Shown here: one piece after another, positions 5,073-40,173 of the stretch
How the letters are laid out: each line of letters starts with the position of its first letter
Numbering within the stretch: the first letter of the stretch is position 1
From: a virus
Direction: 5' to 3' (one strand)
DNA: 52,244 bases
IMG/VR virus record: IMGVR_UViG_3300024992_000001
Program-made: the position numbers and the translations under genes
Notes under the pieces: generated by a model
What the model saw: only the letters and a program-made list of their open reading frames with translations
Databases searched by the model: none
Told to the model about the DNA's origin: nothing

Positions 5073-5109
5073 CCTTTTTAAGGCTTTGCCCTTTATCAAA
5101 TGGTGTGCA

Positions 5110-5145
5110 TTAACACTTGACAGGGTGTTAATCAATTGCTAATAT
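5110..5145 (+). promoter_or_regulatory. Operator-over-promoter site 1: TTAACAC-N8-GTGTTAA palindrome spanning the -35 element
   Basis: TTAACACTTGACAGGGTGTTAA (5110-5131) has perfect 7-bp inverted half-sites. TTGACA (5117-5122), a 17-nt spacer, then TAATAT (5140-5145). Confidence 0.7.
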
Positions 5146-5153
5146 ACATCATT

Positions 5154-5531: not shown

Positions 5532-5671
5532 AAAGGATGGTGAACACCGATGATTAAATGACTGAGTTAGTAAAAGAGAAAAAAACTTAAAAATGAAATG
5601 AATTGAGTGAGTATAAACAGTTTCCAGGAGCCCGGTAATACCCATCGGGCCCCTGGAGAAAGTAAGAAGAG

Positions 5672-6061: not shown

Positions 6062-6099
6062 CACCGATTCACCGAATCAAAAATACAAGGAGTTTTACT

Positions 6100-6993: not shown

Positions 6994-7026
6994 CCCGCCA
7001 TAAGGTCCGTTCTCCTTACTCCTACG

Positions 7027-7056
7027 AAAAGGGCCTGCTCCACCAGGCCCTTTTTA
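7027..7056 (+). terminator. Intrinsic terminator
   Basis: AAAA-GGGCCTG-ctccac-CAGGCCC-TTTTT. Confidence 0.75.
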
Positions 7057-7070
7057 AATCAAAGGCTTTT

Positions 7071-22145: not shown

Positions 22146-22736
22146 ATGCAGGTAGTAGAGAACGCTGGTGCTAAGCCCTGGGATATTCTTCCTGATGAAG
22201 ATATGGCCTGGTTTAAGCGCTTTGAGAAATATAGACTGATGCAGCCTGAAGACAGAAGTCTAAAGGTTTTGTTTATGCTGGAGCGCGAACGGCGTAAGCG
22301 CCTGGGTACCCTGGACCAGCTTCCAGCGTACCGTACCTTCGTGCAGGTAGCTAAGAAACATGACTGGCCTGGTCGTGCTAGAGAGTTTGATAAGGCTGAG
22401 ATTGAGAAGGACAGGGCAGGTGCTGAGCTACTACGTAGTGAGGAGTCACGTTCAGCAGAAGAAGAAAGAGCTTTACAAAGACAACATCGCCGCCAGCTTA
22501 TGAACATTTTATTTAATAAGGTGCTGGCCGCCATCAATACGGAAAGTTTTGATTTAACGAAAGCCAAGCCGGGGGAGCTACTTCAGTTCATGCGAGTCTA
22601 TCTTAAAGAGAATCGTGAGGAATATGATAATGCTCCAGCAAGGTACCGCCGGTTCCAGTTTGATACGCTAACCGACCAGGAGCTTTATGACCTTATCCAA
22701 GAACAACTCGCCCTTAATCCTGGCCGCACTAGATGA
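22146..22736 (+). CDS. terS: Putative terminase small subunit (196 aa)
   Basis: Position immediately upstream of, and overlapping, terL. Charged helical protein. No specific motif recognised. Confidence 0.5.
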   Translation: MQVVENAGAKPWDILPDEDMAWFKRFEKYRLMQPEDRSLKVLFMLERERRKRLGTLDQLPAYRTFVQVAKKHDWPGRAREFDKAEIEKDRAGAELLRSEESRSAEEERALQRQHRRQLMNILFNKVLAAINTESFDLTKAKPGELLQFMRVYLKENREEYDNAPARYRRFQFDTLTDQELYDLIQEQLALNPGRTR

Positions 22737-26036: not shown

Positions 26037-26488
26037 TGAGCGCAAAAATCGGTTTGAAATATATTGGTCCGAAAAAGATTTTTCCTACCGCGATAGAAAT
26101 TGAAAACGCGATAGAAAAAAAATTAACCCTGACAGCGGCTGATGCTCAAATAGATTTTATAAAGCTGGTCTCCAACTGGAAAGACAAGGTTGTTTTTACA
26201 ATCAAAACTCTTCCTATGGAACGGCAGGTCGGCACCAGTAACCGGATTTTTAAATTTGTCAGCCAGGGTACCCCGGTCCGGTACGCTTACATGTCCACTG
26301 ATTTTATGGCTAAAACAAAGCCTGGCAGTTTAACTTCGGGCTCCGGGGCCGGTCGAAAATGGGGTGTGAACGTCAATAATCCCCGGCCCGGTATCAAAGC
26401 CAGGGACTTTGACAAGCAGATTGCAGAAAAGTACCAGAAAAAATTCGGTCCGGCTATTCAGAAAGAACTAAGCAGGTTGTTTAAGTAA
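26036..26488 (+). CDS. Hypothetical virion-module protein (150 aa)
   Basis: TAATGA coupling to the portal gene. Confidence 0.55.
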   Translation: MSAKIGLKYIGPKKIFPTAIEIENAIEKKLTLTAADAQIDFIKLVSNWKDKVVFTIKTLPMERQVGTSNRIFKFVSQGTPVRYAYMSTDFMAKTKPGSLTSGSGAGRKWGVNVNNPRPGIKARDFDKQIAEKYQKKFGPAIQKELSRLFK

Positions 26489-26526
26489 CATCTGAGCCAT
26501 GCTCAGATAGAAAGAGGTTTTTCGAC

Positions 26527-27069
26527 ATGACTCAGATGAAGCGAATTTATCAGGCAACCCAGTCGGATTATGCCAGCACTAACTTTACCCAGTCGGACGG
26601 AGCGCTCAGCACCTGGCCGACCGGTCAGACTGCGGTTACTTCCGGCTCTCCTACTACGGCTTCCAACCAGGCCAGCCTGCCGACTACCGCAAAGTTCGGT
26701 CTCAATCACAATTCTTCGGACGTGTTTGTCCGGGCAAAAGCTGTCAGCAAGGCTGGGGAAGCGGTCTATGTTCGGGGCGATGCGAACGGCTATTACTACG
26801 CCGCTAACGAATCGACCGGCACGACCCTGAACTATTTCCAGATTTCCGGCTCTGTTAAGACGGTACTGGCCGGTCCTTTCACCGGTAACGCCGCGAACGA
26901 CATTCTGGGCCTGGAAGCGCTGGGCACAAAACTGACCCTGCTCCGTAACGGTCGAATTCTGGCCCAGGTTGACGCCCTAAACGGTGTTACCAGCAAGGAG
27001 CATGGTATTCGTAATCCGAGCGGTTCGACCGTGCTCATGGACGACCTGATTATCTTCCCGGCTTTCTAA
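26527..27069 (+). CDS. Hypothetical beta-rich protein, possibly a ConA/LamG-like jelly roll (180 aa)
   Basis: Ser/Thr/Gly-rich. By eye its architecture is similar to the first ~195 aa of 28852-29640 (…YY…, …G..L…, terminal DD-hydrophobic). Confidence 0.45.
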   Translation: MTQMKRIYQATQSDYASTNFTQSDGALSTWPTGQTAVTSGSPTTASNQASLPTTAKFGLNHNSSDVFVRAKAVSKAGEAVYVRGDANGYYYAANESTGTTLNYFQISGSVKTVLAGPFTGNAANDILGLEALGTKLTLLRNGRILAQVDALNGVTSKEHGIRNPSGSTVLMDDLIIFPAF

Positions 27070-27090
27070 TCAAAACAAGGTATCTAGTTT

Positions 27091-27516
27091 ATGGCTGAAC
27101 AAATCTTAGAGCTAACTCCCCAGGAGCTGGAGCAGGCCCAGGGGTTAAACCTTACTCAGGAAGAGTTGAACGCTCAAATGCAGCTCTTCATGAAACGGTT
27201 TCCTATGGTGCCGCTCTCTGAATTTCGAAAGGTGATAACCGGTATTCTCCAGGATACCGCCGCCGCCGAGTTACAGAGCCGGGTTGTTCAGCCTACCGAC
27301 CCCCAGGTTTACCAGGACACGATTTCGCTTTTTCTCCGGCAGCTTACTTTGCTCTGGGCCGCTTACAAACCGAGCCTTGATATAGATAAGGCTGCTCCGG
27401 TCCTGGCCCAGGCTCTGCAAAACCGGGGCCGAGCTCGGCCAGGTGAAAGTATTCGAGATGCGGCCAAATTTGTTTATGCCAGAATCCAGCGCGGGGAGCT
27501 CGATAAATTTTTATGA
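27091..27516 (+). CDS. Hypothetical helical protein (141 aa)
   Basis: ORF track. ATGA coupling downstream. Confidence 0.55.
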   Translation: MAEQILELTPQELEQAQGLNLTQEELNAQMQLFMKRFPMVPLSEFRKVITGILQDTAAAELQSRVVQPTDPQVYQDTISLFLRQLTLLWAAYKPSLDIDKAAPVLAQALQNRGRARPGESIRDAAKFVYARIQRGELDKFL

Positions 27517-27701
27517 GTCAACTTCTGGAAAAAGAAAAAGTTGAAGAGTTGGCCGAGCCTTTTCGGTGTTTATGTTGCCGGGTTATTCTCGGCTTTACTA
27601 ACGGTAAGCTACTAAAGATAGCCGGGGTGTTTATTAATAAATCTACTCCCCTGGCCTGTGCAAATTGCAAAACGGTGCGAATTTGGAGAGTTGTTAGTTA
27701 A
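27513..27701 (+). CDS. Hypothetical zinc-ribbon protein (62 aa)
   Basis: CLCC...CANC pairs. Confidence 0.5.
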   Translation: MSQLLEKEKVEELAEPFRCLCCRVILGFTNGKLLKIAGVFINKSTPLACANCKTVRIWRVVS

Positions 27702-27718
27702 TTCCAGGAGAAAAATAA

Positions 27719-28366
27719 ATGGCCGGTAGCAAAGGCGATGCTTACGAAAATACAGTTCTCGATACTGCTCTGGGTAATGGCAGCCCGGCCAGTCTGTACT
27801 GGGCCCTGGTCCAGGAATTCACCGGGGATGGGACGTTTACGGAAGCGAGCGGCGGGAGCTATGCCCGTGTGGCTCAGACAAACAACTCGACAAATTTCCC
27901 GGCTGCTTCCGGCGGCTCTAAATCAAATGGTACGACTGTAACTTTTGTTCAGGCTACGGCTGATATTGCCGCCGACCCGAACCGGATTCATGGCTGGGCT
28001 TTAATGGACGCTTCTAGCGGCGGTAATGCCAGGTACTGGGGGGAGTTTGTTGGAACAGCAAAAGTCTTTGTTGTAAAAGCTTCAACTGACATTTTTACTT
28101 CTATTGGTCATGGGTATACCAATGGTACAAAAGTTAGGGTTTGGAGCGCCGGGCCAGCTCTGCCTTCTGGTATTGCTCAGTTCACTACCTATTACATCAT
28201 TAACGCCACTACCGATACTTTCCAGTTTTCGGCTACTTCCGGTGGTTCCGCTGTGGACGTTACGGCTGATGGCGGTGGTTTGATTGCAACCGACCTGGCC
28301 CAGGAATACCGGCTCGGTAATACTTTTGTAATCGGTGCTGGTTCTGTCACTATCTCGGAAGATTAA
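27719..28366 (+). CDS. Putative virion fibre/decoration protein (215 aa)
   Basis: AGGAG RBS. Gly/Ser/Thr/Ala-rich. Its N-terminus (YENTVLDTALGNG...SGGSYARV) recalls a widespread phage structural family. The assignment is tentative. Confidence 0.4.
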   Translation: MAGSKGDAYENTVLDTALGNGSPASLYWALVQEFTGDGTFTEASGGSYARVAQTNNSTNFPAASGGSKSNGTTVTFVQATADIAADPNRIHGWALMDASSGGNARYWGEFVGTAKVFVVKASTDIFTSIGHGYTNGTKVRVWSAGPALPSGIAQFTTYYIINATTDTFQFSATSGGSAVDVTADGGGLIATDLAQEYRLGNTFVIGAGSVTISED

Positions 28367-28852
28367 ATGCCTAACGTCTGGTTAATAGCAAAAAATAAGC
28401 GGTTGCCTTCGGCGCGGCGCCCTACCGTGTATTGCCCGGTCTACGACTATATTGATTTGATAAGAGCGGACGGTGGGGCTTGTGCGGAAAGTGAGGTGCT
28501 GGGCGGTTATTTCCTGGTTAAGGTCAGGGCTTCGGTCAGCACGCTACAAACGATAGCGGCTGACCCGCTAATCATCTATGTCCCGCTTTCCAAATTGGAT
28601 GACCCGGTGTCCAGTTTGACGGCCAACCAGCGAACTGTTCTACGAAATGTGCTTTTGTCTATGGGGTATTCGACGGCAGAGTTACTTGCCGCTTTACCTA
28701 ATATTGCTCAGGCTACGCTAGGGCAGGTTTTAAGGTTTGCAAACAATCGCCGTCAGGATACCACCTATGACGAAGCCACTGACACGGTTAATTATAACGG
28801 GCCGGTTCAGGCTTGCGTTCCGGTTGATTTGATTGATGCTCTGGTGCAGTAA
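28367..28852 (+). CDS. Hypothetical protein (161 aa)
   Basis: Abuts the upstream stop. TAATG coupling downstream. Confidence 0.55.
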   Translation: MPNVWLIAKNKRLPSARRPTVYCPVYDYIDLIRADGGACAESEVLGGYFLVKVRASVSTLQTIAADPLIIYVPLSKLDDPVSSLTANQRTVLRNVLLSMGYSTAELLAALPNIAQATLGQVLRFANNRRQDTTYDEATDTVNYNGPVQACVPVDLIDALVQ

Positions 28853-29640
28853 TGGCTTTTCCTACTACAAGCATACTGGACAATTTTAACCGGGCTAATG
28901 GCAACAATGTTTATTCGAACGGTCCCTGGGGAGCTACACCTATCTGGTCCGGGGACACTTCCCTGGTTATCAGTTCCAACGCCGCTAAAGCTAACGGTAG
29001 TTGGGGCGATGTCTATACCAATACTTCCACCTATACCGATTCGGAAGCCTACGCCACCATTTCGTCTACCGGTGGGACGGATGGTTATTTGGAAATAATG
29101 GTGCGCGGTTCCGGGGGTAACTCAGGTAATCCTAGTTATTATAGCCTTGGTTGGAGTCAACACGATAACCATGACGATACCTGGCGAGTCTATCGTTCAG
29201 CCGGTGGTGCTTACACTCAATTAGGCGCTCAGTTTACCCAGGCGCCTGCTGTTGGTCACAGGTTCGGTATAAGTGCCATTGGGTCTTCCGTTATCGGTTA
29301 TTACGATACCGGCAGTGGGTTCGTTGCAAAAGTTACAACTTCGGACACAACGCATACCAGCGGCAGGTTAGGGTTTGAGATTTACAATTCTAGTGGGATT
29401 GATGATTTCGGCGGCGGCACGCCCGGCTCTGGAGTAACTGCCGATATGACCAGGCCGGTTAGAGTGACAACTGCGCCGTTCCCGTTTTTCCATATCCAAT
29501 ATTTTAAAAGGTTCCTTAAAGGAGTAAAAAATGTCTGGAGTAAAATGGGCTGCTACAATCTCCGAAGTAGCTCTTTCGGCGGCTACAGCCAAAACAGTTT
29601 TACAGGTAGTAGCGGCAACAAACCAGCGATTGCTCGTTAA
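28852..29640 (+). CDS. Hypothetical ConA/LamG-like beta-rich protein (262 aa); the last ~65 codons are doubtful and the 3' end overlaps the next gene by 110 nt
   Basis: DNFNRANG...GYLEIMVRG...GRLGFEIYNSSGIDDFGGG. The tail after GGG is low-quality sequence that runs through the next gene's RBS. Confidence 0.5.
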   Translation: MAFPTTSILDNFNRANGNNVYSNGPWGATPIWSGDTSLVISSNAAKANGSWGDVYTNTSTYTDSEAYATISSTGGTDGYLEIMVRGSGGNSGNPSYYSLGWSQHDNHDDTWRVYRSAGGAYTQLGAQFTQAPAVGHRFGISAIGSSVIGYYDTGSGFVAKVTTSDTTHTSGRLGFEIYNSSGIDDFGGGTPGSGVTADMTRPVRVTTAPFPFFHIQYFKRFLKGVKNVWSKMGCYNLRSSSFGGYSQNSFTGSSGNKPAIAR

Positions 29641-29980
29641 CCGTTTTGGAGTTTTTTTCGACGGCATTTCTACCACTGCCGAGCCGGTCCAGGTGCGTAT
29701 ACTCAGGCAAACTACCGCCGGTACTTCAAGCGCAAATACTCCTGTAAAACGGGTTAACTCCGATTCTGAAACTCTCCAGGTTACAGCTCGCGATACTTTT
29801 ACAGTGGAACCTACCAACAGCGATGTTTACGATGTTTTTGAAGTCCACCCTCAACAGGGTATTGATGTGATACTTCCGTTCGGCCAGGAAATAGTTGTTA
29901 AGGGCGGTGACCGGTTAGGAATAGAGTGTACTGCCCCGGCAGCGGTGAATTGCAGGGCTAAATTCTGGGGTGAAGAATAA
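29531..29980 (+). CDS. Hypothetical beta-rich virion protein (149 aa)
   Basis: Strong RBS (AAAGGAG, 7 nt, ATG). Confidence 0.6.
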   Translation: MSGVKWAATISEVALSAATAKTVLQVVAATNQRLLVNRFGVFFDGISTTAEPVQVRILRQTTAGTSSANTPVKRVNSDSETLQVTARDTFTVEPTNSDVYDVFEVHPQQGIDVILPFGQEIVVKGGDRLGIECTAPAAVNCRAKFWGEE

Positions 29981-29989
29981 AGGTAAAAA

Positions 29990-31369
29990 ATGCCTTTTGG
30001 ACAGGTTAGAGTAAGACAGCCTTTTTTACCGCTTCCCCCGAAAGATGAAGCGGTAAATGTCGTTGCGACTAACAGTGCCGCTTCCGGTGCCGCTTCTACT
30101 CAATCTGCTGTTCAGGTTACCCGCTCTTTAACATCTTCATCTTTTGCTCGCGGGGTTGCAGCCGCTACTCTAAATATTTTAATAAATTTAAGCAGCGCGA
30201 GTAACGGCCAGGCTAAAACCAGCTCCAGCGCCCAGGTTACGAAATCAGTTACTTCGGCCGCGAAGGGCCAGACCGCCACAGGTGCGAGCGCCCAGGTAAC
30301 CAGATCGGTTTCCTCAACTTCCAGGGGTCAAGCGAAAAACAGCAGTACCGGCCCGGTTGTTACACAATCGGTCAGCTCGGCCAGCCGGGGCCGCGCCCAG
30401 TCAACCGGCCAGGTCCAGGTAAGCGGTGTTTATCCAGCGTCAAAGACTGACGGCAGGGCCCGGATTTCGAGCAGTATTACCCGGACGGTATTATTTACTT
30501 CGACCGCGTCTGGCCGGGCCGTTACTACTGTTAGCGCAACTGTAATTAAATCGGTTGCTGGCTCGGCAGCGGCCAGGTCTAGCGTTACCAGTAGTTTTAC
30601 TGTAACAAAGGTTGTTTCCGGCCAGGCCCTGGGCCGCTCTCAAACCCAGGTTAGTCTGTCCGTCCTGGTCCAGCTCTCCCCCAGTGTAAGCCGGGGCCGA
30701 GCCAGTACAACAACAGTTATCAGTACCGGTAACGAAGTAATAGCGACGCCCAGCGAGAGTCGGGGCCGCGCCCGTGTGGTTTCCAGTTTTACCGTAACAA
30801 AATCAGTTTCTGGTCAGGTCCAGGGCCGGGCTATTACCAGTCAATCTCAGGTCGTTGTTACTAAAACAATGGCGGTCAGTACCAGTAAAGGGCGGGCCCA
30901 GGTCCAGGCAAGTACCCAGGTCAGTAAGATTTTTGTTACCAGGGCCGCCGGCAGGTCTTTTGTTTTATCTAATCTCTTTGTAGAGCACTCGCTCCAGGTT
31001 ATTTCGAAGGGCCGAGCTCGCACGACTGGCCTGGTTCAGGTAACCAGGTTGCTTACCAGTGGTATCCAGGCCAGAGCTTCTCTAACTTCCGCCGTTACTA
31101 TTCAGAAGTTTTTAAGTAGCCTTGCGGCTGGTAGAGCGCGTACCGTATCTATTTTTGATATTGTTGGGCCGCACAATGATGAGAAGCCAGTTTTAACTAT
31201 TCTCGAAGGGGTTTTCCCAGTTGCAACCGTAAAAACTCAGTCGCTCCCTGTGGCTTTTATAATCAATAAAGAGCTGGTTGTTGCGAAGGTTTCAGAAGGT
31301 TTATTACCGGAAATGGAAGTTACTGAGCTTGTTTTGCCGGTAGCAAAATTGAAAGAAGGGGCTTCTTAA
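29990..31369 (+). CDS. Tandem-repeat Ser/Thr/Val-rich protein (459 aa, about 17 repeats of ~21 aa)
   Basis: The recurring unit is s.qVTkSVss.s+GrA.t. G(R/Q)A turns appear at ARGVA, NGQAK, KGQTA, RGQAK, RGRAQ, DGRAR, SGRAV and onward to AGRAR. Confidence 0.7.
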   Translation: MPFGQVRVRQPFLPLPPKDEAVNVVATNSAASGAASTQSAVQVTRSLTSSSFARGVAAATLNILINLSSASNGQAKTSSSAQVTKSVTSAAKGQTATGASAQVTRSVSSTSRGQAKNSSTGPVVTQSVSSASRGRAQSTGQVQVSGVYPASKTDGRARISSSITRTVLFTSTASGRAVTTVSATVIKSVAGSAAARSSVTSSFTVTKVVSGQALGRSQTQVSLSVLVQLSPSVSRGRASTTTVISTGNEVIATPSESRGRARVVSSFTVTKSVSGQVQGRAITSQSQVVVTKTMAVSTSKGRAQVQASTQVSKIFVTRAAGRSFVLSNLFVEHSLQVISKGRARTTGLVQVTRLLTSGIQARASLTSAVTIQKFLSSLAAGRARTVSIFDIVGPHNDEKPVLTILEGVFPVATVKTQSLPVAFIINKELVVAKVSEGLLPEMEVTELVLPVAKLKEGAS

Positions 31370-31749
31370 TGACAGCTTCTGTTAAATATAAAGATTTTGA
31401 GAAAGACTGGTTTACCCATTCTTCTCTTGAATTGCCTTTTAACCTTACTTTAGGTGGGGCTCCTTTGACAAGCTCACAGCTTCAAGAAATCTGGTTTACT
31501 GCGAAGCTTAGTGATGAAGATGACGACCCAGGAATTTTTCAGGTTACAAAGACCGATGGCGATATTATTGTTATTGATGACCCGAACGGAGAGTACCTGG
31601 TAGTGGTTCCGGCAGCTTTAACTTCCGGTATAACTGCCCCGACAACTCTTTATTGCGATATTAAGACCAAAGAAGTTTTAAGGGGTCGTGTGATTGTAGG
31701 CGCTCGCGGAATAATCAATATGTACCCGACTCCTACGCAAGCAGTTTAG
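31369..31749 (+). CDS. Hypothetical Ig-like/fibre-module protein (126 aa)
   Basis: TAATG coupling. The pattern ...IFQVTKTDGDIIVIDDPNGEYLVVVP...LYCDIK... is seen in small phage fibre-associated proteins. Tentative. Confidence 0.5.
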   Translation: MTASVKYKDFEKDWFTHSSLELPFNLTLGGAPLTSSQLQEIWFTAKLSDEDDDPGIFQVTKTDGDIIVIDDPNGEYLVVVPAALTSGITAPTTLYCDIKTKEVLRGRVIVGARGIINMYPTPTQAV

Positions 31750-31768
31750 AGGTATATTCACACTATTA

Positions 31769-31797
31769 TTGACAAGTTCTGATATACTGAGAATATA
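31769..31797 (+). promoter_or_regulatory. Promoter-like sequence upstream of the head operon
   Basis: TTGACA (31769-31774), a 16-17 nt spacer, then GAATAT/AATATA. The -10 match is only moderate. Confidence 0.35.
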
Positions 31798-31860
31798 CAA
31801 GCCTTAATATTTTAAAGCCCTGGTCCTATTTGAAGAAACCAGGTAACGGTGAACCTTGCA

Positions 31861-31895
31861 GCTCACAGAGTTTTCTCTGTGAGCTTTTTGTTTTT
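31861..31895 (+). terminator. Strong intrinsic terminator 11 nt upstream of the protease/scaffold start codon
   Basis: GCTCACAGAG-tttt-CTCTGTGAGC-TTTTTGTTTTT. It is preceded by the hairpin CCTGGT-N13-ACCAGG (31819-31843). Confidence 0.8.
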
Positions 31896-31906
31896 AGAAA
31901 GAATTT

Positions 31907-34144
31907 ATGGCCGAAATTGTTGAAGCCGACCAACTCGATACCGACGAAAATCTAGAAACAGGTCAGGACCAGGAAAATACCCCGGTTCATACCGGCGTAA
32001 TGGTTGCTTTTTACCTGGAGCCCGAAGAAGCCGCAAAGCTGGCTCTGCCGGAAGGCTCGTTAGGTGCCGGTGACCAGGCCAGCGCTCCCGAAGACCTGCA
32101 TATCACGCTGGCCTATTTCGGCGATATTAATAATCACCCTCAACAAACCAAGTTAACCATGCTCTATAACCTCAAATGGTTTGCTGAGTGCTTTCGGCCT
32201 GTTAGCGGCAAGGTCTCCGGTTATGCCCTCTTCGATAGCCCGGAAGGCGAACCTAAACCTTTTGTTGCTCTTTTCGATAGTCCTGGGCTCGAATCTTTTA
32301 GAAACACCCTCAAAATGAACATGCAGTCGGAAGGAATTTACCCGGCTGCCAATCACGGTTTTACCCCTCACATCACCCTGGCTTATCTGGCCGACGGTAC
32401 CAAATTACCGGACGCGCAAATACCGGCGCTGGACCTGGATTTTGAGTCTATCAGTCTCTGCTGGGGTGAAGAGCGTTACGACTTCCCCCTGGGTACTTAC
32501 CTCAATGATGCTCAGTTCGAGCAGTATACCGTCAAAGCTTCTCAGGCTAATTATGGCGCGAAGGCCGGTCAGGCGATTGTCGGCAAGCTCACCAGGGGCG
32601 CTGACGGTAAATTTTCCAGCGGCGGGCAGTCTACTCCTGCCGGTTCCATGTCCGGCCCAAAGGGTAAAACTCCCCGGAAGACTGCTGCTACCGACGCGGC
32701 GAAAGCACAGGCTAAAGCTGACCTGGCAGCGGCCAAAGAGCAGGATAAGCAGGACGCCGCTAACGAAGCCGCTCAGAAAGCCCTGGAGAATACCGGGAAT
32801 ACCCTGGACAAATTGGGGGTAGATTCCGATATTGCCGAAGCTCTGACGGTCGGAGATTCTATCGGCGATATTTCCGGGGTTAACGAAGCTACTAAAAATA
32901 AATTGCGCGATGCTGGTATCGGCCAGGATTATCCTGACGGTACTTTTGACCTGACCCCCAATGGCCGCCGGCTGGTTAAGGCCGCTATGAAGGGTGATGT
33001 TAAAGCCGCGAAGCGGGCACTCGCAACCGGCAAACAGGTTGCCGATAAAAAAGCTGCCGTGGCGGCCAGAAAGAAAAAGAAAACTAAAAAAGAATTCGGT
33101 GAAACCCCGGTCCTGGCTACCACTTTCAAATCTTTTGTTGACGACAAAGGTCAGCGGCGCTGGCTCACCATGTCCTCTTCCGGTTTCCAGGATAAGGACA
33201 AACAATTTGTTACCACCAGGGCCCTTACCCAGGACGTAGCGCGAAGCTACAAAGAACACCCTGACAAGAATTTCGGGCCGCTCCGCTGGTGGCACGTCCC
33301 CGGTGTGGACATAGGCACCTGTGATTTCCGGGGCATGTCCGGTTCTATTTTGATTGAATCCGGCACCTTTAAGACCAAAGAAATAGCGGAAGCTATTACT
33401 TCTTACGCCGCTAAAAATCCCCTGGGCGTAAGTATCGGGTTTGAAAATTTCGTTTTTGAGCCGGACGAAACCGGCGCTTTTAACTACATCACGACCAAAG
33501 AAAGAAGCTTGCTGCCTGAAGTGAGAGCTTCTAATTGGCTTGCTCGGTTTTTTAATTTTACAAAAAAGGAAAAAGACATGTTACCGGAAAAAATCCAGGA
33601 ACTTTATAAGGCGATGGGGGGCAGCCCTGAAGCGCTCGCTCAGGTCAACGAAATCGTAAGCCTGGCTGCTCAAACCGAAAAGGCTGCTCTCGACGCCGGT
33701 CTTACTGTCAAAGAAATTCAGCAGCCTGGTGCTGCTGAAGAAGAGCAGTATATCGGGGATATGACACATAAGGAATTTCAGGACCAGGTCGGCCAGGCTG
33801 TCAAAGCTCAGATTGCTCCTTTTGCCGCTGTAATGGGCAACCTGACCGAGGCCCTCAAAGGTGTTTCGACCACGAAAGAGGCTCAGAAAACTCTGACCGA
33901 AACCATTGAAAAACAGGCTCAGACCATCAAGGAAATGCAAGGGAAGCTCGGTGAGCTTTCGGCTGAAACCCCCAGGGCCTTTAACCAGTATCGCGCTTCT
34001 CAGCAGGATACGACCGTCGATACCACGAAAACTGAAGAGACGGTTAAAAGCCAGGCCCCCGCGCCGGATTCTTATGACGCCTTCTTGAATGGAATGTTCA
34101 ATTTTGGACCTCAAACCGGGCAACCGGCTCAACCTGTTAAATAG
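31907..34144 (+). CDS. Fusion protein: N-terminal 2H phosphoesterase (LigT/CPDase-like), Lys/Ala-rich linker, HK97-type prohead protease-like domain and coiled-coil scaffold-like C-terminus (745 aa)
   Basis: Two HxTx motifs, LHITLAYF (His codon 32099-32101) and PHITLAYL (His codon 32369-32371). The protease-like region reads WWHVPGVDIGTCDF...GVSIGF...ERSLLPEVRASN. The C-terminus is helical (QKTLTETIEKQAQTIKEMQGKLGEL). It sits directly upstream of the capsid gene. Confidence 0.7.
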   Translation: MAEIVEADQLDTDENLETGQDQENTPVHTGVMVAFYLEPEEAAKLALPEGSLGAGDQASAPEDLHITLAYFGDINNHPQQTKLTMLYNLKWFAECFRPVSGKVSGYALFDSPEGEPKPFVALFDSPGLESFRNTLKMNMQSEGIYPAANHGFTPHITLAYLADGTKLPDAQIPALDLDFESISLCWGEERYDFPLGTYLNDAQFEQYTVKASQANYGAKAGQAIVGKLTRGADGKFSSGGQSTPAGSMSGPKGKTPRKTAATDAAKAQAKADLAAAKEQDKQDAANEAAQKALENTGNTLDKLGVDSDIAEALTVGDSIGDISGVNEATKNKLRDAGIGQDYPDGTFDLTPNGRRLVKAAMKGDVKAAKRALATGKQVADKKAAVAARKKKKTKKEFGETPVLATTFKSFVDDKGQRRWLTMSSSGFQDKDKQFVTTRALTQDVARSYKEHPDKNFGPLRWWHVPGVDIGTCDFRGMSGSILIESGTFKTKEIAEAITSYAAKNPLGVSIGFENFVFEPDETGAFNYITTKERSLLPEVRASNWLARFFNFTKKEKDMLPEKIQELYKAMGGSPEALAQVNEIVSLAAQTEKAALDAGLTVKEIQQPGAAEEEQYIGDMTHKEFQDQVGQAVKAQIAPFAAVMGNLTEALKGVSTTKEAQKTLTETIEKQAQTIKEMQGKLGELSAETPRAFNQYRASQQDTTVDTTKTEETVKSQAPAPDSYDAFLNGMFNFGPQTGQPAQPVK

Positions 34145-34189
34145 CAGGCTTTGTTTTAGTTTTTTACCTTCCTGAAAGGAAATTCAGAA

Positions 34190-35659
34190 ATGCCTACAGC
34201 AGAAATTGATTACGACAAGCTTGCTGCCAGAGTGGTACAAAATCTCATAAAAGGTCAGTCCGAAAAGGCAGTCAGCTCTACCCCGAACTATACCTACGGC
34301 TATAGCGCCGGTGGTCTTTTTGCTACTCCCGGTCTTCGAAGCCCTGTCTTCTCGGCGCTCATGCTGCCGGTCTTCGGTCTTCAATCCCGGTTACCTGCTA
34401 AAGCGGCCAGCGAAACCAACCCGCTCTTCGGGATTATCTCCGGGGTTGGAGCGGCTACCGGGTCTAACCCGGTCGGCGTTTGTGACGACCCGAAGACTGC
34501 CGGGCTCACGACCATCTGTACCCGTTCGGCGGTCTTTGGCCGGTTGAGCCTGCAAACTCCGGTTATCGACATTGACAAAATCGGTAAGAAGGTTAACCAG
34601 GCGGTTAATTCCGACCTGACCATCCTGAACAACCCGACCTCTTCGCCTAACAGCTTCATGCCGACCGCTCCGGCTGGCATGGGGGCGGTCCAGAACGCTG
34701 TTAAATCTGAAATCGGCAAAATCCTTTTTGAATTCGGTGTTGCCTGGAGCCGGGAATTTGGCAAGCTTCTTTACACCGGTAACCCCTCGAACAACACTTC
34801 CGGCGGCGGTTACAAGGAATTTTGGGGTCTTGACGGCCAGATTAACACCGGGCTTTCGGACGCGGTAACCGGTTCGCCCTGCGCGGCTGTGGACTCCATG
34901 ATTGTCGATTTCCAGTCGGCTAACATCTCCACGAACCAGACTGCCTCGGCCAACATTATCAAATACGTTGTCGGGGTTATGCGGAACCTCAAGTACATCG
35001 CTCGCCGGACCGGCCTGGAGCCTGTTAAATGGGTGCTTGCCGGGCCGGACCAGTTGTTCTATGAGTTGACCGCAAGCTGGCCCTGCAACTACCTGACCAA
35101 CCAGTGTCAGACAGCGGTCGGCACGACCCAGAGCCCGAACGTCTCGATTCAGGTTACCGGGGCCGACGCGGTGAAAATGCGCGATGACATGCGGAGCGGA
35201 AATTTCCTCTGGGTTGACGGCCAGCAGGTCGAATTTGTGATTGACGAGGCGATTGCTATCAGCACTTCCGATAACATCGCTTACACTTCCAGCCTTTACT
35301 TCGTTCCCCTGACCGTCCTGGGCGGTACCGAAGTGACTTACTTCGAGTATTTCGATTACAGCATGAACGGCGGCAGCCTGGAAGCGGCCAAAGTGCTGGC
35401 TCCTGACGGTATGTACTCGGTTTCGGACGGCGGTCGTTTCCTCTGGCACAAGAAGCCGCCGACCAATTTCTGCGTGCAAATGTTGGCGAAGACCGAGCCC
35501 CGCCTTCTCTGCCTTACTCCTTTCTTGGCAGCTCGGATTATCAATATTCAGTACACGCCGGTATTCATTACTCGATCGGCCTGGCCGGGTGACCCGAACT
35601 ATGTTGCGGGCGGTGTTACCAGCGCGGTTACCGACTGGCTCAACTTCGTTACTCCGTAA
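34190..35659 (+). CDS. Putative major capsid protein (489 aa)
   Basis: It immediately follows the protease/scaffold gene and is followed by a 13-bp-stem hairpin. No motif-level proof. Confidence 0.6.
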   Translation: MPTAEIDYDKLAARVVQNLIKGQSEKAVSSTPNYTYGYSAGGLFATPGLRSPVFSALMLPVFGLQSRLPAKAASETNPLFGIISGVGAATGSNPVGVCDDPKTAGLTTICTRSAVFGRLSLQTPVIDIDKIGKKVNQAVNSDLTILNNPTSSPNSFMPTAPAGMGAVQNAVKSEIGKILFEFGVAWSREFGKLLYTGNPSNNTSGGGYKEFWGLDGQINTGLSDAVTGSPCAAVDSMIVDFQSANISTNQTASANIIKYVVGVMRNLKYIARRTGLEPVKWVLAGPDQLFYELTASWPCNYLTNQCQTAVGTTQSPNVSIQVTGADAVKMRDDMRSGNFLWVDGQQVEFVIDEAIAISTSDNIAYTSSLYFVPLTVLGGTEVTYFEYFDYSMNGGSLEAAKVLAPDGMYSVSDGGRFLWHKKPPTNFCVQMLAKTEPRLLCLTPFLAARIINIQYTPVFITRSAWPGDPNYVAGGVTSAVTDWLNFVTP

Positions 35660-35673
35660 TCTTTCGTTCCGGT

Positions 35674-35703
35674 TGAGCAGCAGGAGAATTCTCCTGCTGC
35701 TCA
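35674..35703 (+). terminator. 30-bp perfect palindrome after the capsid gene (hairpin; terminator or mRNA stabiliser, no T-run)
   Basis: TGAGCAGCAGGAG-AATT-CTCCTGCTGCTCA. Confidence 0.5.
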
Positions 35704-35749
35704 AAGTTAGATGACAGTTAATTTTTATTGATTAAGAAAGGCTAAATCA

Positions 35750-36265
35750 ATGGCCTGTAGCAGTTGCGGGGGTAGTCCCCTGTTGCAGATGGGAGATGCT
35801 TTAACTATGGCACGTCAAGCAGATGACCCGGTGACTCCCGGTACGACCCGTTTCGAATATGTTGGCCCTTTCGCCGGCGGTGTTTCTTACACGAACCCGC
35901 AAACTGGCCGGACCTATGTCGGCGGCAATAACAGCCGGGATAAATTCATTGATGTCTACAAAGAAGACGTCGACTATATCCAGGCTCGCGGCGTGTTCAA
36001 GCTCATTGAAATCCCGGCTTCGGAAACCATGACCGTTGCTGAAAAAGAAGCTTTGACGCCGCGTGACCCCAAAGCCAACACGACCCTGGAAGACCTGGAC
36101 TTGCCGCCGGACCCTGATGCCGAACCGGCCCAGGAGCAAGCTGCTGTCGAACCGGTAGCCGAACAACCGGCCCAGGAAGAAGCGGTCGTGGACCCAGAAC
36201 CGGTCCAGGACCAGGCAGCCCAGGAGCAACCGGTCCAGGAGAAGACTTCCAAGTCTAAAAAATAA
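35750..36265 (+). CDS. Hypothetical protein with an acidic Pro/Glu/Gln-rich repeat tail (171 aa)
   Basis: N-terminal CSSCGG. The C-terminus reads EPAQEQAAVEPVAEQPAQEEAVVDPEPVQDQAAQEQPVQE. Confidence 0.55.
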   Translation: MACSSCGGSPLLQMGDALTMARQADDPVTPGTTRFEYVGPFAGGVSYTNPQTGRTYVGGNNSRDKFIDVYKEDVDYIQARGVFKLIEIPASETMTVAEKEALTPRDPKANTTLEDLDLPPDPDAEPAQEQAAVEPVAEQPAQEEAVVDPEPVQDQAAQEQPVQEKTSKSKK

Positions 36266-36567
36266 TGCCTGACCTTCTCCTTCTGTTTCTCCTCGTTTCG
36301 GGTATCTATAGCCTGGCCTGTATGGTCGCTAAAGAAGAAGGCCCCTTCAGCATTTTTGTAAAGCTAAGGGGCCTTGACCCGGAGCAAAAGACTTGGCCGG
36401 GCCGCCTGGTCACCTGTCCTTTTTGTTTATCGGTCTGGTTCGCAATCCCCGCCGCGCTCCTGTGGTACCTGAGAGTTTTTGAAAGCCGGGAAGCGGTAGC
36501 AGTCCTTTTAATTTTCAGTATCAGCGGAGTAATTCTCGCGCTGTTGAGACTTTTCGGGCAAAGATGA
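36265..36567 (+). CDS. Small integral membrane protein (DUF1360-like) inside the structural module (100 aa)
   Basis: About three hydrophobic segments, with CPFCLSVWFA. TAATG/ATGA coupling on both sides. Confidence 0.55.
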   Translation: MPDLLLLFLLVSGIYSLACMVAKEEGPFSIFVKLRGLDPEQKTWPGRLVTCPFCLSVWFAIPAALLWYLRVFESREAVAVLLIFSISGVILALLRLFGQR

Positions 36568-37745
36568 ATTTGTTAGCACTCGACGATTTTAGAAAAATAA
36601 TAGGGCATGACCCCTATCATTTCTGGCAGCTTTCCAGTGAAAAGTGGCCGTCTACTTCGTCATGCGACAGTATTTTGAGAAAATATCGCTGGCAAAATGC
36701 CCAGGCTATAGGGCGCTTTGAAATCGAGCAGGCTATTAACCAGGCTGAAACCGACCTGGTTAATTACCTGGGTTTTTACCCTGGGCCGCTCTACCAGACC
36801 GTTAAATTACCGCTCGGTTGCCCGGTCCACCGGCTTAATTATTTTAATCTCTATTCTTACCAGCGCCGGTATTCCAATGAATTAAAGCTGGGTATCGGTA
36901 AGCTTGTTTCCGTTTGCACCGTTACTCGGCAACTCCTGGGTAACTATAAGGTTCAGTACAGCGATAAAAACGGCGATAGCCTGAACGATTACTTCAAGAT
37001 TGATTTTTCCGATTCTACTTCGGACCCGGCTGACCTGGAAGCTTATTTTACGGGCGCTGACCAGCTTCCCCTTGACGATAGCGACGCCGATTACCAGGTC
37101 CGACCGGTCCGGTTTTACCGGCTCAACCCTACCACTATTCGGCTCGAAGGTTTTAACTGGCTCCTGGTCAAACCGGCTTTTTACGAAAACACTATCTATC
37201 CCGGTTTTGACCCTAGTATTTCAGGCACCAATACTTCCGGGGCGCTGGAAGTCAGCGATAACCTGAACTTTGTATCCACGCTCGATATTTATAAAAAAGT
37301 TTACTCGAATACAAACAAGGTTACTCTGACTGTTACCGATTTTTCCGGTAACTCTACTGTCAGCACCTTTAATGTCGCAATTCATGACCCTGACTTGGGC
37401 CTTATCCAGGTTAACCAGGCTTGCTTTGACGCGGCCCCGGTCTGTTATTGCTCGGTTTCTTCGGCCTTTTATACGGTTAATTTTATTTCGGGTGACGACC
37501 TCAATAAGTGGAAAGCCACAATAGCCCGGCTGGCTCTGGCCGATATTGCCGCGCCGCTCTGCCCGTGTGAAAGCCTGGAAGTAGAACACTGGCAGAATGA
37601 CCGGGCGGTTACCGGTAACGGCCAGGGCGGGTTTTCCAGGATTGATAACGACGACCTTAAAAACCCGTTCGGTACCAGGGAAGGCCAGATAGCGGCCTGG
37701 CACCAGGTAAAAAATCAAAGAATTCTAGGTGGTTTAGGCAATTAG
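36564..37745 (+). CDS. Hypothetical structural protein (393 aa)
   Basis: ORF track. It lies between the capsid and tail-tube genes. Confidence 0.55.
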   Translation: MNLLALDDFRKIIGHDPYHFWQLSSEKWPSTSSCDSILRKYRWQNAQAIGRFEIEQAINQAETDLVNYLGFYPGPLYQTVKLPLGCPVHRLNYFNLYSYQRRYSNELKLGIGKLVSVCTVTRQLLGNYKVQYSDKNGDSLNDYFKIDFSDSTSDPADLEAYFTGADQLPLDDSDADYQVRPVRFYRLNPTTIRLEGFNWLLVKPAFYENTIYPGFDPSISGTNTSGALEVSDNLNFVSTLDIYKKVYSNTNKVTLTVTDFSGNSTVSTFNVAIHDPDLGLIQVNQACFDAAPVCYCSVSSAFYTVNFISGDDLNKWKATIARLALADIAAPLCPCESLEVEHWQNDRAVTGNGQGGFSRIDNDDLKNPFGTREGQIAAWHQVKNQRILGGLGN

Positions 37746-37768
37746 TTACTTCGAAGGAAGGTTAAAAA

Positions 37769-39343
37769 ATGGGAATTGGTACTGCTGAACAGCACAACAC
37801 ACAACAGCATCTAAGAGCCTTTTACCAGCCTGGCGGCCCTGGTCCTGAACAGGCTCGGCTTTTCGGCGGCTCTGATATGAGCTACATTCAGATTGAAGGC
37901 GCCGGAATTGAACTCCTGGGGGACGTTAACGCCTCTTTTATGAACGACCCGCGCCGGGTCGGCCAGTATACGCCTACGGCCATTATGACGACCGCGCCGA
38001 GCCTGCCGACCGCTACCGTTACTTTCTCCGAAAGAAAAGGCGGTATCCCCCGGCAGCTCATGGGTTTTGGCTGCAAAGCCAATTTCTATGAACTGGTCGG
38101 CACCTGCAAAGACCCCGGTGACTTCCTGCGCGGCTGGTCCGAGTACGTGATGATTTACAGCCAGGGCACCGTCAAAAAGGTTGACCTGGGTGATCGGACC
38201 AGTTTCGAAGGTAACGACCGGCTGGAAGGCTCGCTGGACATTACCTGGGGGCGGAACCCGTACCCTGTGGGTGTTTTGAATTTCGGCCCGGCGGGTATCG
38301 GCACCGTAACCGCTATCAAGGTTGAAGATATTTGCTACGGTTCTCAAATTCAGTGTGACGCGAACTGCGGTATCTCGAACGACGGCAGCCGGTTCATTTA
38401 CGCGGCGGTTGACGGCGCTGCCGCCGCGAAGCCGATTGTGGTCTATTCGACCGATTACGGCGCAAACTGGACCCAGTATATCTTGACCCTGGGCGCGAAC
38501 GCCGAAATCCCTTCGGCTATTGACGTTGTTGGTTCTTACCTGGTCGTTGTGACGAAGACCGCCGGCGGTGCGAACCAGGGCGGCTATTATTACACCGATA
38601 TTAACAACAATACCGGTGTTCCGAACTCGGCCAACTGGGCCAAAGTTACGACCGGCTTTATCAACCTGGCAAGCCGGGCCCCGAACGATATTTATGTAGC
38701 CAATACTAATGAAGTCTATTTTGCGGCTGACGGCGGCTACATTTACAAGAGCACCGATATTACCCAGGGCGTTGTTGTAAACAACGCCGGGGCAACCGTC
38801 ACCACGAACCTGCTCAGAATTCGCGGCCTGGACAATACCATTATCGCAACCGGCTCCACTTCGGCGGTAATCGTCACTTATAACTCCGGTAAAGTCTGGG
38901 GTGTTCCGACTACCAGCCCCACGACCGGCCCGGTCGGCGTTCAGGCGGTAGCGCTGCAAAATCCTTCTTTCTGGTGGGTAGGTACCGACGACGGTCGGCT
39001 TTTCTATACTGTAAACCGGGGTGAGACCTGGGTCCAGAAGCGTTTTTCTGGAGACGGCGCGGGCCAGGTCCGGGACATTGTCTGGGCTACTCCCGAAGTC
39101 GGTTATTTCTCGCACTCAACGACAGCTCCGGCTGCTCGCATTTTCTCGACTTATGACGGCGGCTTTAGCTGGACCAATATTGCACCACGCATTAATGCTT
39201 TCGGCACTATGGCGAACGCGTACCGCCTGAATGTGCCTGTTTACGCAACTGACCCGATAGCGGCTAATAACCTGGCCGTTGCCGGAGTCGCTGCGAACGG
39301 GACTGACGGCATGGTCTATATGGGCTCGGCTGGCCTAATTTAA
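37769..39343 (+). CDS. Putative major tail (tube) protein with a C-terminal BNR/Asp-box beta-propeller (524 aa)
   Basis: It sits directly upstream of the chaperone pair and the tape measure. Asp-box-like repeats are YSTDYGANWTQ, VTYNSGKVWGV, YTVNRGETWVQ and FSTYDGGFSWTN. Confidence 0.5.
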   Translation: MGIGTAEQHNTQQHLRAFYQPGGPGPEQARLFGGSDMSYIQIEGAGIELLGDVNASFMNDPRRVGQYTPTAIMTTAPSLPTATVTFSERKGGIPRQLMGFGCKANFYELVGTCKDPGDFLRGWSEYVMIYSQGTVKKVDLGDRTSFEGNDRLEGSLDITWGRNPYPVGVLNFGPAGIGTVTAIKVEDICYGSQIQCDANCGISNDGSRFIYAAVDGAAAAKPIVVYSTDYGANWTQYILTLGANAEIPSAIDVVGSYLVVVTKTAGGANQGGYYYTDINNNTGVPNSANWAKVTTGFINLASRAPNDIYVANTNEVYFAADGGYIYKSTDITQGVVVNNAGATVTTNLLRIRGLDNTIIATGSTSAVIVTYNSGKVWGVPTTSPTTGPVGVQAVALQNPSFWWVGTDDGRLFYTVNRGETWVQKRFSGDGAGQVRDIVWATPEVGYFSHSTTAPAARIFSTYDGGFSWTNIAPRINAFGTMANAYRLNVPVYATDPIAANNLAVAGVAANGTDGMVYMGSAGLI

Positions 39344-39404
39344 TAGCTTGATACGCCTGACCTGGCAGCTAAGCTGCCAGGTCTACTTGCTTAGGAGATG
39401 ACAG

Positions 39405-39956
39405 ATGACACAGGAAACCCCTTCTGCCAATAAACCGCTTATTGGCAATCTTTTTATTCGCAACGGTAAATCCTATTTCCGCTTTGCCAAAGGTGTTGAA
39501 GTTCGGATTAAACCGGTCAGCCCGGCTTTAGTCCAGGAAGTCCAACGCGCAAACCCCCGGCCAGCTCCCCCGCTCCGTCAGATTGCCGTCGGTGACGGCA
39601 CTTTCATGGAAGAAGAAAACGAATCCGACCCGGATTACCGGGAAAAATTCAAAGCCTGGTCAATGAAATCCGAAGACGATTTCGCGGACCTGCTTTTAGA
39701 ACTCGGCGTTGAACTGGTCACGCCCATAGACCAGCAGGCTGTGGACGCTATCAAAATTTTTATGTTGAAGCGGTTCGCGGTTGACCTTACTCAAAAAGGT
39801 GACGGCTCTGACCGGTATATCTATGTCCGGTATGTTCTCCCTGAAAGCGAAGCCGAGTTGCAAGCTCTTACTCAGGCTCTTATGGGTCGGAGTAAGCCGG
39901 ACGAAGGAGCGATAGCGCAAGCTATCGAGAATTTTTCAGGCAACATTCAAGGGTAA
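39405..39956 (+). CDS. Putative tail assembly chaperone (G-like, 183 aa)
   Basis: Position immediately upstream of the tape measure. AGGAG RBS. Confidence 0.55.
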   Translation: MTQETPSANKPLIGNLFIRNGKSYFRFAKGVEVRIKPVSPALVQEVQRANPRPAPPLRQIAVGDGTFMEEENESDPDYREKFKAWSMKSEDDFADLLLELGVELVTPIDQQAVDAIKIFMLKRFAVDLTQKGDGSDRYIYVRYVLPESEAELQALTQALMGRSKPDEGAIAQAIENFSGNIQG

Positions 39957-39972
39957 GGACATATTCAAGTAT

Positions 39973-40173
39973 GTGCTCCCCCGGTCCGGTTTCAGGTTTA
40001 ATCCACAGCTCGATTATGACCTGGCCGCGCATTGGTGGGGGTACAAACTTGAAGAGTTCTGGGAGCTCTTACCTGATGAACAGGCGTACAGGGTAGCCGT
40101 TTACCGGATAGAGCGACAAATGGAAGCCGTTCTGGCCTGGCAAAAGGCTAAAAGAAGGAAACCCGGAAGTTAA
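39973..40173 (+). CDS. Putative T-like chaperone extension (66 aa if GTG-initiated; may instead be reached by a +1 shift from 39405-39956)
   Basis: No RBS. Its frame is open back to 39916 and overlaps the end of the G-like ORF, which contains a U5 tract (39932-39936). Confidence 0.45.
   Translation: MLPRSGFRFNPQLDYDLAAHWWGYKLEEFWELLPDEQAYRVAVYRIERQMEAVLAWQKAKRRKPGS

Follow-up and report, generated by a model that had tools for sequence, protein, structure and literature searches.

A LigT-like 2H phosphoesterase domain fused to a predicted prohead protease-scaffold protein of an uncultivated phage, a candidate head-loaded enzyme

We examined a gene of an uncultivated phage (IMG/VR record IMGVR_UViG_3300024992_000001) whose single product joins a 2H phosphoesterase domain, a linker, a prohead protease domain and a scaffold-like tail; packaging and activity of the 2H domain are predicted here from sequence and structural models. 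The window, by which we mean the whole stretch of DNA analysed (52,244 nucleotides (nt)), carries a perfect 127-nt direct repeat at its two ends (1-127 and 52118-52244) and is therefore a complete ~52.1-kb (52,117 bp) siphovirus-like phage genome from a circular assembly. The open reading frame (ORF) of 745 amino acids (aa) and both of its H-x-T-x motifs were found at the codons where the original prediction had placed them. The gene is laid out as follows, with domain limits drawn in part from AlphaFold2 (AF2) models and their predicted local distance difference test (pLDDT) scores, and with isoelectric points given as pI.

31907-34144, plus strand: whole gene, 2H phosphoesterase, linker, prohead protease and scaffold-like tail (745 aa, 80.7 kDa), a single uninterrupted ORF with an ATG start
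31907-31990, plus strand: N-terminal leader, aa 1-28, acidic with a net charge of -9 and predicted to be disordered (pLDDT 53-55 over the first 20 residues)
31991-32497, plus strand: LigT-type 2H phosphoesterase domain, aa 29-197, 18.5 kDa, pI 4.5 (Pfam, AF2 with pLDDT 93-98, Foldseek)
32099-32110, plus strand: first catalytic motif, H65-I-T67-L (LHITLAYF), His65 codon at 32099-32101
32369-32380, plus strand: second catalytic motif, H155-I-T157-L (PHITLAYL), His155 codon at 32369-32371
32498-33121, plus strand: linker, aa 198-405, with Lys/Ala-rich stretches (from composition)
32567-32614, plus strand: conserved short linker motif GQAIVGKLTRGADGKF, aa 221-236, the window form being G-x-x-I-x-G-N-L-x-R-G-x-x-G-K-F
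33122-33550, plus strand: prohead serine protease domain of predicted assemblin / HK97 gp4 / T4 gp21 fold, aa 406-548 (AF2 and Foldseek)
33293-33295, plus strand: His463, candidate catalytic histidine, an invariant residue
33431-33433, plus strand: Ser509 in GVSIGF, candidate catalytic serine, an invariant residue
33551-34141, plus strand: alpha-helical scaffold-like tail, aa 549-745, pI 4.8 (AF2 helices)
33566-33580, plus strand: possible internal start, AAGGAA followed by ATG (Met558), with the same sequence at this boundary in two relatives

The original prediction had allowed that an assembly or frameshift artefact might have merged two separate genes. This is excluded for practical purposes, and the fusion is a genuine gene, because the identical 745-aa protein was found again on a second, independent contig from ENA, five homologues (~28-43% identity; JGI, ENA and Logan assemblies) align over ~94% of its length, the 2H domain and the same protease domain occur together in at least 24 of its first 49 matches (all metagenomic), and the fusion recurs in 5 of 39 related loci (two JGI and three IMG/VR contigs). 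Nothing we found spoke for an artefact, the one mild oddity being the possible internal start at Met558, and we regard this explanation as extremely improbable.

Two Pfam families matched aa 55-172 above their cut-offs, LigT_PEase (E=6.6e-9; 36.3 bits against a cut-off of 23.3) and 2_5_RNA_ligase2 (E=5.6e-8; 33.4 bits against 27), and PHROG families labelled 'RNA ligase' matched aa 28-197 (E=5e-18), one of these being a profile of 891 positions with the 2H part at its C-terminal end. Across a 47-sequence alignment H65, T67, P154, H155 and T157 were invariant, in keeping with the 2H superfamily signature that had been read from the two motifs. An AF2 model of aa 1-210 (mean pLDDT 89) adopted a 2H fold, and its best Foldseek match in the PDB was Thermus TT0787 (1iuh; E=3e-9, template modelling (TM) score 0.69), followed by the D. 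radiodurans cyclic phosphodiesterase (CPDase; 5h7e) and E. coli LigT (5ldm), this top range running from 3e-9 to 1e-7. At E≤1e-3 there were 56 PDB matches, and all among those listed had the 2H fold; rotavirus VP3 ranked 21st, a Burkholderia phage BCSR5 phosphodiesterase 33rd and Acb1 47th, and Usb1 was also matched. A profile of the 745-aa protein family, compared with PDB sequences, likewise found 5h7e (2.8e-8), with the 2H part alone matched. These LigT enzymes are thus the best profile and structure matches and share the two H-x-T-x motifs; unlike the window domain they are free-standing cellular proteins, and at 16-22% identity their substrate preference is not transferable.

The original prediction had likened the domain to Acb1 (phage T4 / FBB1; PDB 7t26), the phage 2H-fold enzyme that destroys cyclic-oligonucleotide immune signals. 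At the level of fold this comparison held (E=2.4e-4, TM score 0.55, Foldseek rank 47), whereas membership of the Acb1 family (PF23474) was rejected at 12.9 bits and E=0.094 against a cut-off of 27. Among relatives the Acb1 profile reached at most 23.9 bits, with weak matches in 14 of 26 family members (best E=1.8e-5). Acb1 is also small and free-standing and, to our knowledge, is not virion-associated. On the Pfam and PHROG scores, the invariant residues and the Foldseek ranking, the window domain is a predicted LigT-like 2H phosphoesterase with an intact catalytic tetrad and not a member of the Acb1 family. The BCSR5 structure (PDB 9q2y, a 2H-fold 'phosphodiesterase from Burkholderia phage BCSR5' released in November 2025) may be relevant prior work; a literature search for this phosphodiesterase found no paper on the enzyme.

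With LigT and the 2',3'-cyclic phosphodiesterases as its nearest structures, and Usb1 matched too, the domain could act on RNA, either by healing the 2',3'-cyclic phosphate ends that toxin RNases or anticodon nucleases of the host leave behind or by cutting host RNA in the manner of Usb1; the second is one of the two options that the main text of Iyer et al. 2017 (PMC5512222) offers for head-fused 2H domains. We consider an RNA target unlikely. RNA ligase, polynucleotide kinase (PNK) and RtcB-like proteins were not recognised among the window ORFs of at least 290 aa, and a phage RNA repair system (2H/PNK plus RNA ligase) was rejected on the absence of ligase and kinase families in these same ORFs. 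According to the main text of Iyer et al. 2017 (PMC5512222), 2H domains of this kind are never linked to RNA ligases, and the few copies that a virion could deliver would be poorly suited to bulk RNA repair.

The region C-terminal of the linker had been called HK97-type prohead-protease-like in the original prediction, a reading that conserved motifs and predicted fold now uphold. The AF2 model of aa 395-745 contained a confident globular core (aa ~405-544; pLDDT 78-95) followed by long helices. The first 38 of its Foldseek matches in the PDB, and nearly all of the top 50, were herpesvirus assemblins or T4 gp21, and one of them (5jbl) aligned with a TM score of 0.59 and a root-mean-square deviation of 3.9 Å over 154 columns. 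In BFVD the model had 191 matches at E≤1e-3. Most of those with names are annotated as XkdF-like or as prohead protease, HK97 family prohead protease or head maturation protease (COG3740), and protease-capsid fusions account for a few. Three motifs are present, WWHVPGVDIGTCDF (aa 461-474), GVSIGF (aa 507-512) and ERSLLPEVRASN (aa 532-543), and W462, H463, D473, S509, R533, P537 and N543 were invariant in 26 relatives, with C472, E532 and S534 invariant in an 11-sequence alignment only.

When aligned to HK97 gp4 by hhalign, Ser509 of GVSIGF fell on Ser114 of GMSVGF at an alignment probability of only 2%, so that the alignment serves as a guide to the motif. H463-x6-G-x-x-D of the window protein and H65-x7-G-x-x-D of gp4 correspond only after a manual one-residue shift of this 2%-probability alignment, and on that footing we infer that H463 is the counterpart of gp4 His65. 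The spacing from His to Ser is 46 residues in the window protease and 49 in HK97 gp4, and the gene lies between the portal gene and the probable capsid gene, as in HK97-type phages. The window protein shares its predicted fold with HK97 gp4, T4 gp21 and assemblin and differs from them in its 400-aa N-terminal extension and 200-aa scaffold tail.

Neither Pfam nor PHROGs held a family matching aa 200-745 of the window protein or the corresponding part of 20-26 relatives, each scanned individually, and in the same proteins no match to Peptidase_S78, S78_2, S77 or a PHROG protease was found at E≤1. Two scans of GTDB representative genomes found no relative of the protease domain, and tblastn of the 745-aa ORF against 50,697 phage records returned 2H-domain matches only. 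From a representative library, a profile of the protease domain retrieved 3,400 clusters (50% identity) with E≤1e-3, of which 769 reached E≤1e-30. By its predicted fold and its genomic position, aa 406-548 is a prohead protease of a clade that lies outside Pfam and PHROGs.

Beyond the protease core the AF2 model is made of long helices (aa ~560-745, with helices at aa ~560-569, 574-596, 621-652 and 657-686), tails of 190-420 aa are found in most relatives, and an R-A-S-Q...P-A-P-D region at the tail C-terminus is conserved; all of this agrees with the scaffold-like tail proposed earlier. At the boundary between protease and tail the sequence cAAAAAGGAAA-N6-ATG occurs in the window and in two related loci, L001 (11667-11681) and L003 (at Met451 of the 7831-9921 gene), which have only ~40% protein identity and yet keep the same sequence. 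Upstream of Met558 it resembles the ribosome-binding site of the downstream gene. This suggests that a start at Met558 would yield a separate 188-aa nested scaffold protein; alternatively, conservation of AAGGAA could merely reflect a conserved K-K-E peptide. The lambda C/Nu3 and P2 gpO genes are protease-scaffold genes with a nested scaffold product and, like the window gene with its putative internal start, encode a protease and then an in-frame helical scaffold region just 5' of the capsid gene. The lambda C protease, which is ClpP/SppA-like, is of another family, and we know of no enzyme cargo in lambda C/Nu3 or P2 gpO; a separate scaffold is lacking in HK97 itself.

The linker has the Lys/Ala-rich composition attributed to it before and includes, at aa 301-372, a 'mid' module of ~70 aa and, at aa 373-405, a stretch rich in Lys (pI 10.3). 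Linker modules recur in relatives, at times duplicated and in varying order, and weak winged-helix-type Pfam matches (Mrr_N) were obtained in some relatives. The short motif at aa 221-236 occurs once in the six-frame translation of the window. Its family pattern, G-x-x-[IVLM]-x-G-x-[LIVM]-x-R-x(2-5)-G-[KRQ]-F, was present, once each, in 36 of 189 family proteins with or without a 2H domain, N-terminal of the protease wherever domains were mapped, and it could be a cleavage or docking site.

We surveyed the architectures of 166 proteins carrying the protease domain, which were distributed as follows.

Protease(-tail) only: 82 of 166
2H, then protease: 32 of 166
Linker modules, then protease: 14 of 166
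2H, linker, then protease (the window type): 11 of 166
Other orders, including linker, 2H, protease: the remainder of the 166

The protease-scaffold part stands alone in 82 of these 166 proteins, and a 2H domain is present in 28 of the top 140 representatives of the protease family, so that the 2H domain is, on this comparison of architectures, an optional accessory of a head-assembly protein and dispensable for assembly. The survey bears on a non-catalytic role, in which the domain would bind a nucleotide or nucleic acid, or add bulk to the procapsid core (for protease regulation or head sizing). Such a role would suit a domain residing in a core assembly protein, and some 2H proteins (AKAP7/AKAP18) are ligand binders, with weak AKAP7_NLS matches in 7 of 26 relatives. 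We nevertheless judge it quite improbable, given that about half of the family lacks the N-terminal extension and most members lack the 2H domain, which argues that assembly does not require it. Both H-x-T motifs are moreover invariant in the 47 aligned sequences despite ~30-40% identity, and catalysis is therefore probably under selection.

The 2H domain was also found on other partners. Metagenomic relatives were fused to Phage_portal, SPP1_portal, ADP-ribosyltransferase, XkdF protease (PF14550) and the N-terminus of Phage_capsid_4 proteins. In Streptomyces phage Geonosis a 2H domain of the same clade lies inside a 1,187-aa MuF protein (gp11), in Gordonia phage GMA6 a 2H domain, that of orf12, stands between the portal and an ADP-ribosyltransferase toxin, and in Arthrobacter phage Laroye one, that of gp18, lies directly past the portal and protease genes. 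A swap of partner was seen within one lineage, in the related locus L031 (IMGVR_UViG_3300047673_000284), which encodes a portal-2H fusion (694-2784) with the 2H domain on the portal C-terminus. This portal is an orthologue of the window portal (35% identity over 422 aa, E=2e-72) and its 2H domain is 37% identical to that of the window; the L031 protease gene has no 2H domain and carries a 490-aa N-terminal extension with no recognisable domain.

Portal C-termini and crowns, MuF proteins and the N-terminal delta domains of capsid proteins face the capsid interior. Because these partners and the protease-scaffold protein share that position, the comparison favours a head-interior cargo over a role that depends on the protease.

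Two side observations concern the same N-terminal extension. In L020 (IMGVR_UViG_3300022562_001969; gene at 4912-7266) the extension of the protease-scaffold protein contains an XRE-type helix-turn-helix (HTH) domain (HTH_31, E=7.5e-13), possibly a DNA-binding cargo in the same slot. N-terminal extensions of 400-550 aa with no Pfam match also occur on the protease in many relatives, among them L017, L022, L025 and other IMG/VR loci; these extensions may be further cargo domains.

Among the genes around the fusion, the terminase small subunit (TerS), terminase large subunit (TerL) and portal genes come first, followed further on by the 2H-protease gene and then the gene of a 489-aa protein. The head genes referred to here are the following.

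22687-24336, plus strand: terminase large subunit (phrog_9, 2e-34; TerL_nuclease)
24627-26036, plus strand: portal protein (Phage_portal, E=3.5e-6, under the cut-off)
34190-35659, plus strand: probable major capsid protein, 489 aa (from synteny only)

Of 39 related loci from JGI and IMG/VR, 37 have a homologue of the 489-aa protein starting no more than 300 nt, and usually no more than 70 nt, past the protease-scaffold gene, and on this positional ground the 489-aa ORF is the probable major capsid protein. It has at least 693 homologues, with invariant cysteines C98, C110, C231 and C428. No match to it was found in Pfam, PHROGs, the PDB (by profile search) or the 50,697 phage records (by tblastn), and hhalign gave no match to HK97 gp5. 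Of the earlier statement that the fusion gene lies directly upstream of the capsid gene, the adjacency is thus upheld and conserved, and the capsid status of the neighbour is a deduction from position.

We favour, at about even chance, the reading that this is a late head-assembly gene whose 2H domain is loaded into the head, cut free, ejected with the DNA and hydrolyses phosphodiesters. The helical tail would co-assemble with the capsid protein of the next gene, perhaps together with the shorter scaffold started at Met558, and would thereby put the protease and the 2H domain inside the procapsid. The protease would then mature the head and sever the linker, and the folded 18-21-kDa 2H domain would remain as an internal head protein and exit together with the genome when the next cell is infected. 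Once there it would hydrolyse 2',3'-cyclic, 2'-5' or cyclic-oligonucleotide phosphodiesters, of which host defence second messengers would be the likeliest substrates and RNA ends less plausible ones, and it would act ahead of any phage gene expression; late in infection, freshly made precursor would be active in the cytoplasm as well. The nearest functional analogy is offered by the T4 internal proteins and Alt, anti-defence or host-modifying proteins which are loaded into the prohead core, cut by gp21 and ejected with the DNA. T4 cargo is targeted to the capsid by a short N-terminal peptide and encoded as separate gene products, whereas the window cargo is covalently part of the protease-scaffold protein. 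The capsid loading first suggested in the original prediction is plausible and is strengthened by the comparison of 2H fusion partners. A window with no RNA ligase or kinase recognised in its ORFs of at least 290 aa also supports the favoured reading, and matches what the main text of Iyer et al. 2017 states for this kind of 2H domain.

Several points weigh against head loading and ejection. Packaging, cleavage, ejection and enzyme activity are each a prediction, the LigT-like domain misses the Acb1 cut-off and its substrate is likewise predicted, the capsid identity of the next gene leans on synteny, and the catalytic His and Ser were assigned from conservation together with an alignment of low probability. 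With a pI of 4.5 the 2H domain is acidic, whereas the T4 internal proteins are basic. Protease fragments usually exit the head in HK97-type systems, and a portal-fused 2H domain might stay attached and not be injected.

A rival account places the benefit late in infection. Prohead proteases were reported in a 2026 preprint to activate cyclic-oligonucleotide-based antiphage signalling systems (CBASS) late, by cleaving a CD-NTase loop (Hobbs & Kranzusch 2026, PMC12991175); T4 gp21 suffices for this activation, and T4 needs Acb1 and Acb2 as a mask (Hobbs & Kranzusch 2026, PMC12991175). CBASS escape mutations in prohead proteases are reported as well (preprint of a Cell Host & Microbe paper). The 2H domain could accordingly be an antidote fused to a CBASS-triggering protease and made simultaneously with it and in equal amount, head packaging being incidental. 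The 2H fold common to the domain and Acb1, the weak Acb1-profile matches in relatives described above and the location of the gene in the late head module all fit this account, although under either reading freshly synthesised precursor would be there when needed and a separate late gene would give equal timing. The same 2H clade also sits on portal, MuF and capsid proteins, and the move from protease to portal in L031 fits a capsid-interior address better; because of this swap, coupling to the protease is weaker as the main selective reason. With the domain under the Acb1 family cut-off and no CBASS known for the host, we hold a late-acting antidote to be rather doubtful.

The two ideas may be combined, and we put the combination forward only tentatively. 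The N-terminus of the protease-scaffold protein would be a general modular cargo slot, occupied in different phages by the 2H enzyme, the XRE-type HTH or the 400-550-aa extensions, with the 2H cargo neutralising defence messengers that include the signalling its own protease provokes. Delivered with the DNA and present again late, the 2H domain would in such a case place trigger and antidote in one polypeptide.

The original prediction had not recognised this architecture as described, which overstates its novelty, since precedents exist in Iyer et al. 2017 and 2022 and in a metagenomic 2H-XkdF fusion. The main text of Iyer et al. 2017 (PMC5512222) describes phage polyvalent proteins in which a 2H domain is joined to a MuF or portal domain, proposes for these 2H domains a role as RNase or in degrading the nucleotides of nucleotide-activated defence, and reports assemblin-like peptidases at polyvalent protein C-termini. 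According to Iyer et al. 2022 (PMC9503650), 2H domains joined to MuF or portal probably enter the head and are injected against SMODS, cyclic-mononucleotide and CRISPR signalling; Nudix domains fused to a capsid-processing serine peptidase are described there too. The concept of the head-fused 2H domain is thus already published, as a prediction from comparative genomics; experimental work on any head-fused 2H domain was not found in our literature search.

Like the polyvalent or effector-fusion proteins of Iyer et al. (e.g. Geonosis gp11), as far as their main text describes them, the window protein carries a 2H domain of the same clade on a head-interior protein with no RNA ligase link, and it likewise joins a conflict-type enzymatic domain to a predicted head-interior assembly domain. 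It differs from what that text describes in its anchor, which is a protease-scaffold protein with the 2H domain at the N-terminus and the protease followed by a tail and so not C-terminal, and, set against the large multi-effector polyvalent proteins, in having two functional domains only. As partners of 2H domains the main text of Iyer et al., figures and supplements aside, names MuF and portal and not protease. A similar arrangement is that of the metagenomic protein P0045, in which a 2H domain is likewise N-terminal and a prohead-type serine protease of the XkdF type (PF14550, Peptidase_S78_2) C-terminal; it differs in that its protease belongs to another family, catalogued in Pfam, and in having no scaffold tail. 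By hhalign the window protease and the 2H-XkdF protein had no detectable similarity (probability 0.1%). What is new here is a 2H partner that is the protease-scaffold protein of an uncatalogued clade, the swap between portal and protease within one lineage, and the connection with CBASS triggering by prohead proteases.

If the 2H domain is truly loaded into the head through the protease-scaffold protein and ejected with the DNA, we would have in it a first concrete example of a ready-made, virion-delivered enzyme directed against immune signalling nucleotides, and an experimental footing for a class of fusions that has so far rested on comparative genomics (Iyer et al. 2017, 2022). A prohead protease fused to an enzyme with the Acb1 fold is an obvious candidate countermeasure to the protease-triggered CBASS of the 2026 report, and a lineage in which the 2H domain has moved between protease and portal amounts to a clean natural experiment. 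The locus also marks two annotation gaps for environmental phages, a protease family of ~3,400 clusters and a presumed capsid family that has at least 693 members and no known relatives.

Just 5' of the fusion gene lies one further feature.

31860-31895, plus strand: terminator-like hairpin with an 11-bp stem (6 G-C pairs) and a T-run, ending 11 nt 5' of the 2H-protease start codon

This hairpin is the top-ranked terminator-like site, with the longest stem, in 26000-37000, and suggests that the 2H-protease gene opens a new transcription unit or needs read-through past the hairpin. A TTGACA box at ~31771 precedes both the hairpin and the 2H-protease gene, and from the two together the head genes may form their own transcription unit.

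Elsewhere in the window are genes for an SNF2 helicase, a primase-polymerase, a UvrD helicase, a 1,424-aa tape-measure protein, distal tail proteins and an amidase. A megablast of 28000-40000 against the 50,697 phage records gave no match. The downstream 489-aa protein is identical to a 'hypothetical protein' of a Chloroflexi metagenome-assembled genome (MAG) in NCBI; the phage genome was binned with this MAG.

Between the portal-proximal genes and the protease gene we noted a ~4-kb block of six or seven ORFs (27719-31749) that is missing in the closest relative, L001. One member, at 29990-31369, is a protein of 459 aa, rich in Ser, Thr and Val, that contains numerous degenerate '...S.GRA...' peptide repeats, and Tandem Repeats Finder detected no DNA-level repeat in this ORF. 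Two same-strand ORFs, 28852-29640 (262 aa) and 29531-29980 (149 aa), overlap by 110 nt, so that a mis-called start or a programmed frameshift is possible there. At the place expected for the major tail protein lies a 524-aa BNR / beta-propeller-like protein (37769-39343), a position kept in L003, and after the tape-measure gene comes a second propeller protein, of 650 aa (44457-46409; DUF5122 / Reg_prop / Kelch-like). The window (17027-17944) and L001 (565-1428) both encode a Mg-chelatase (ChlI)-like AAA+ ATPase.

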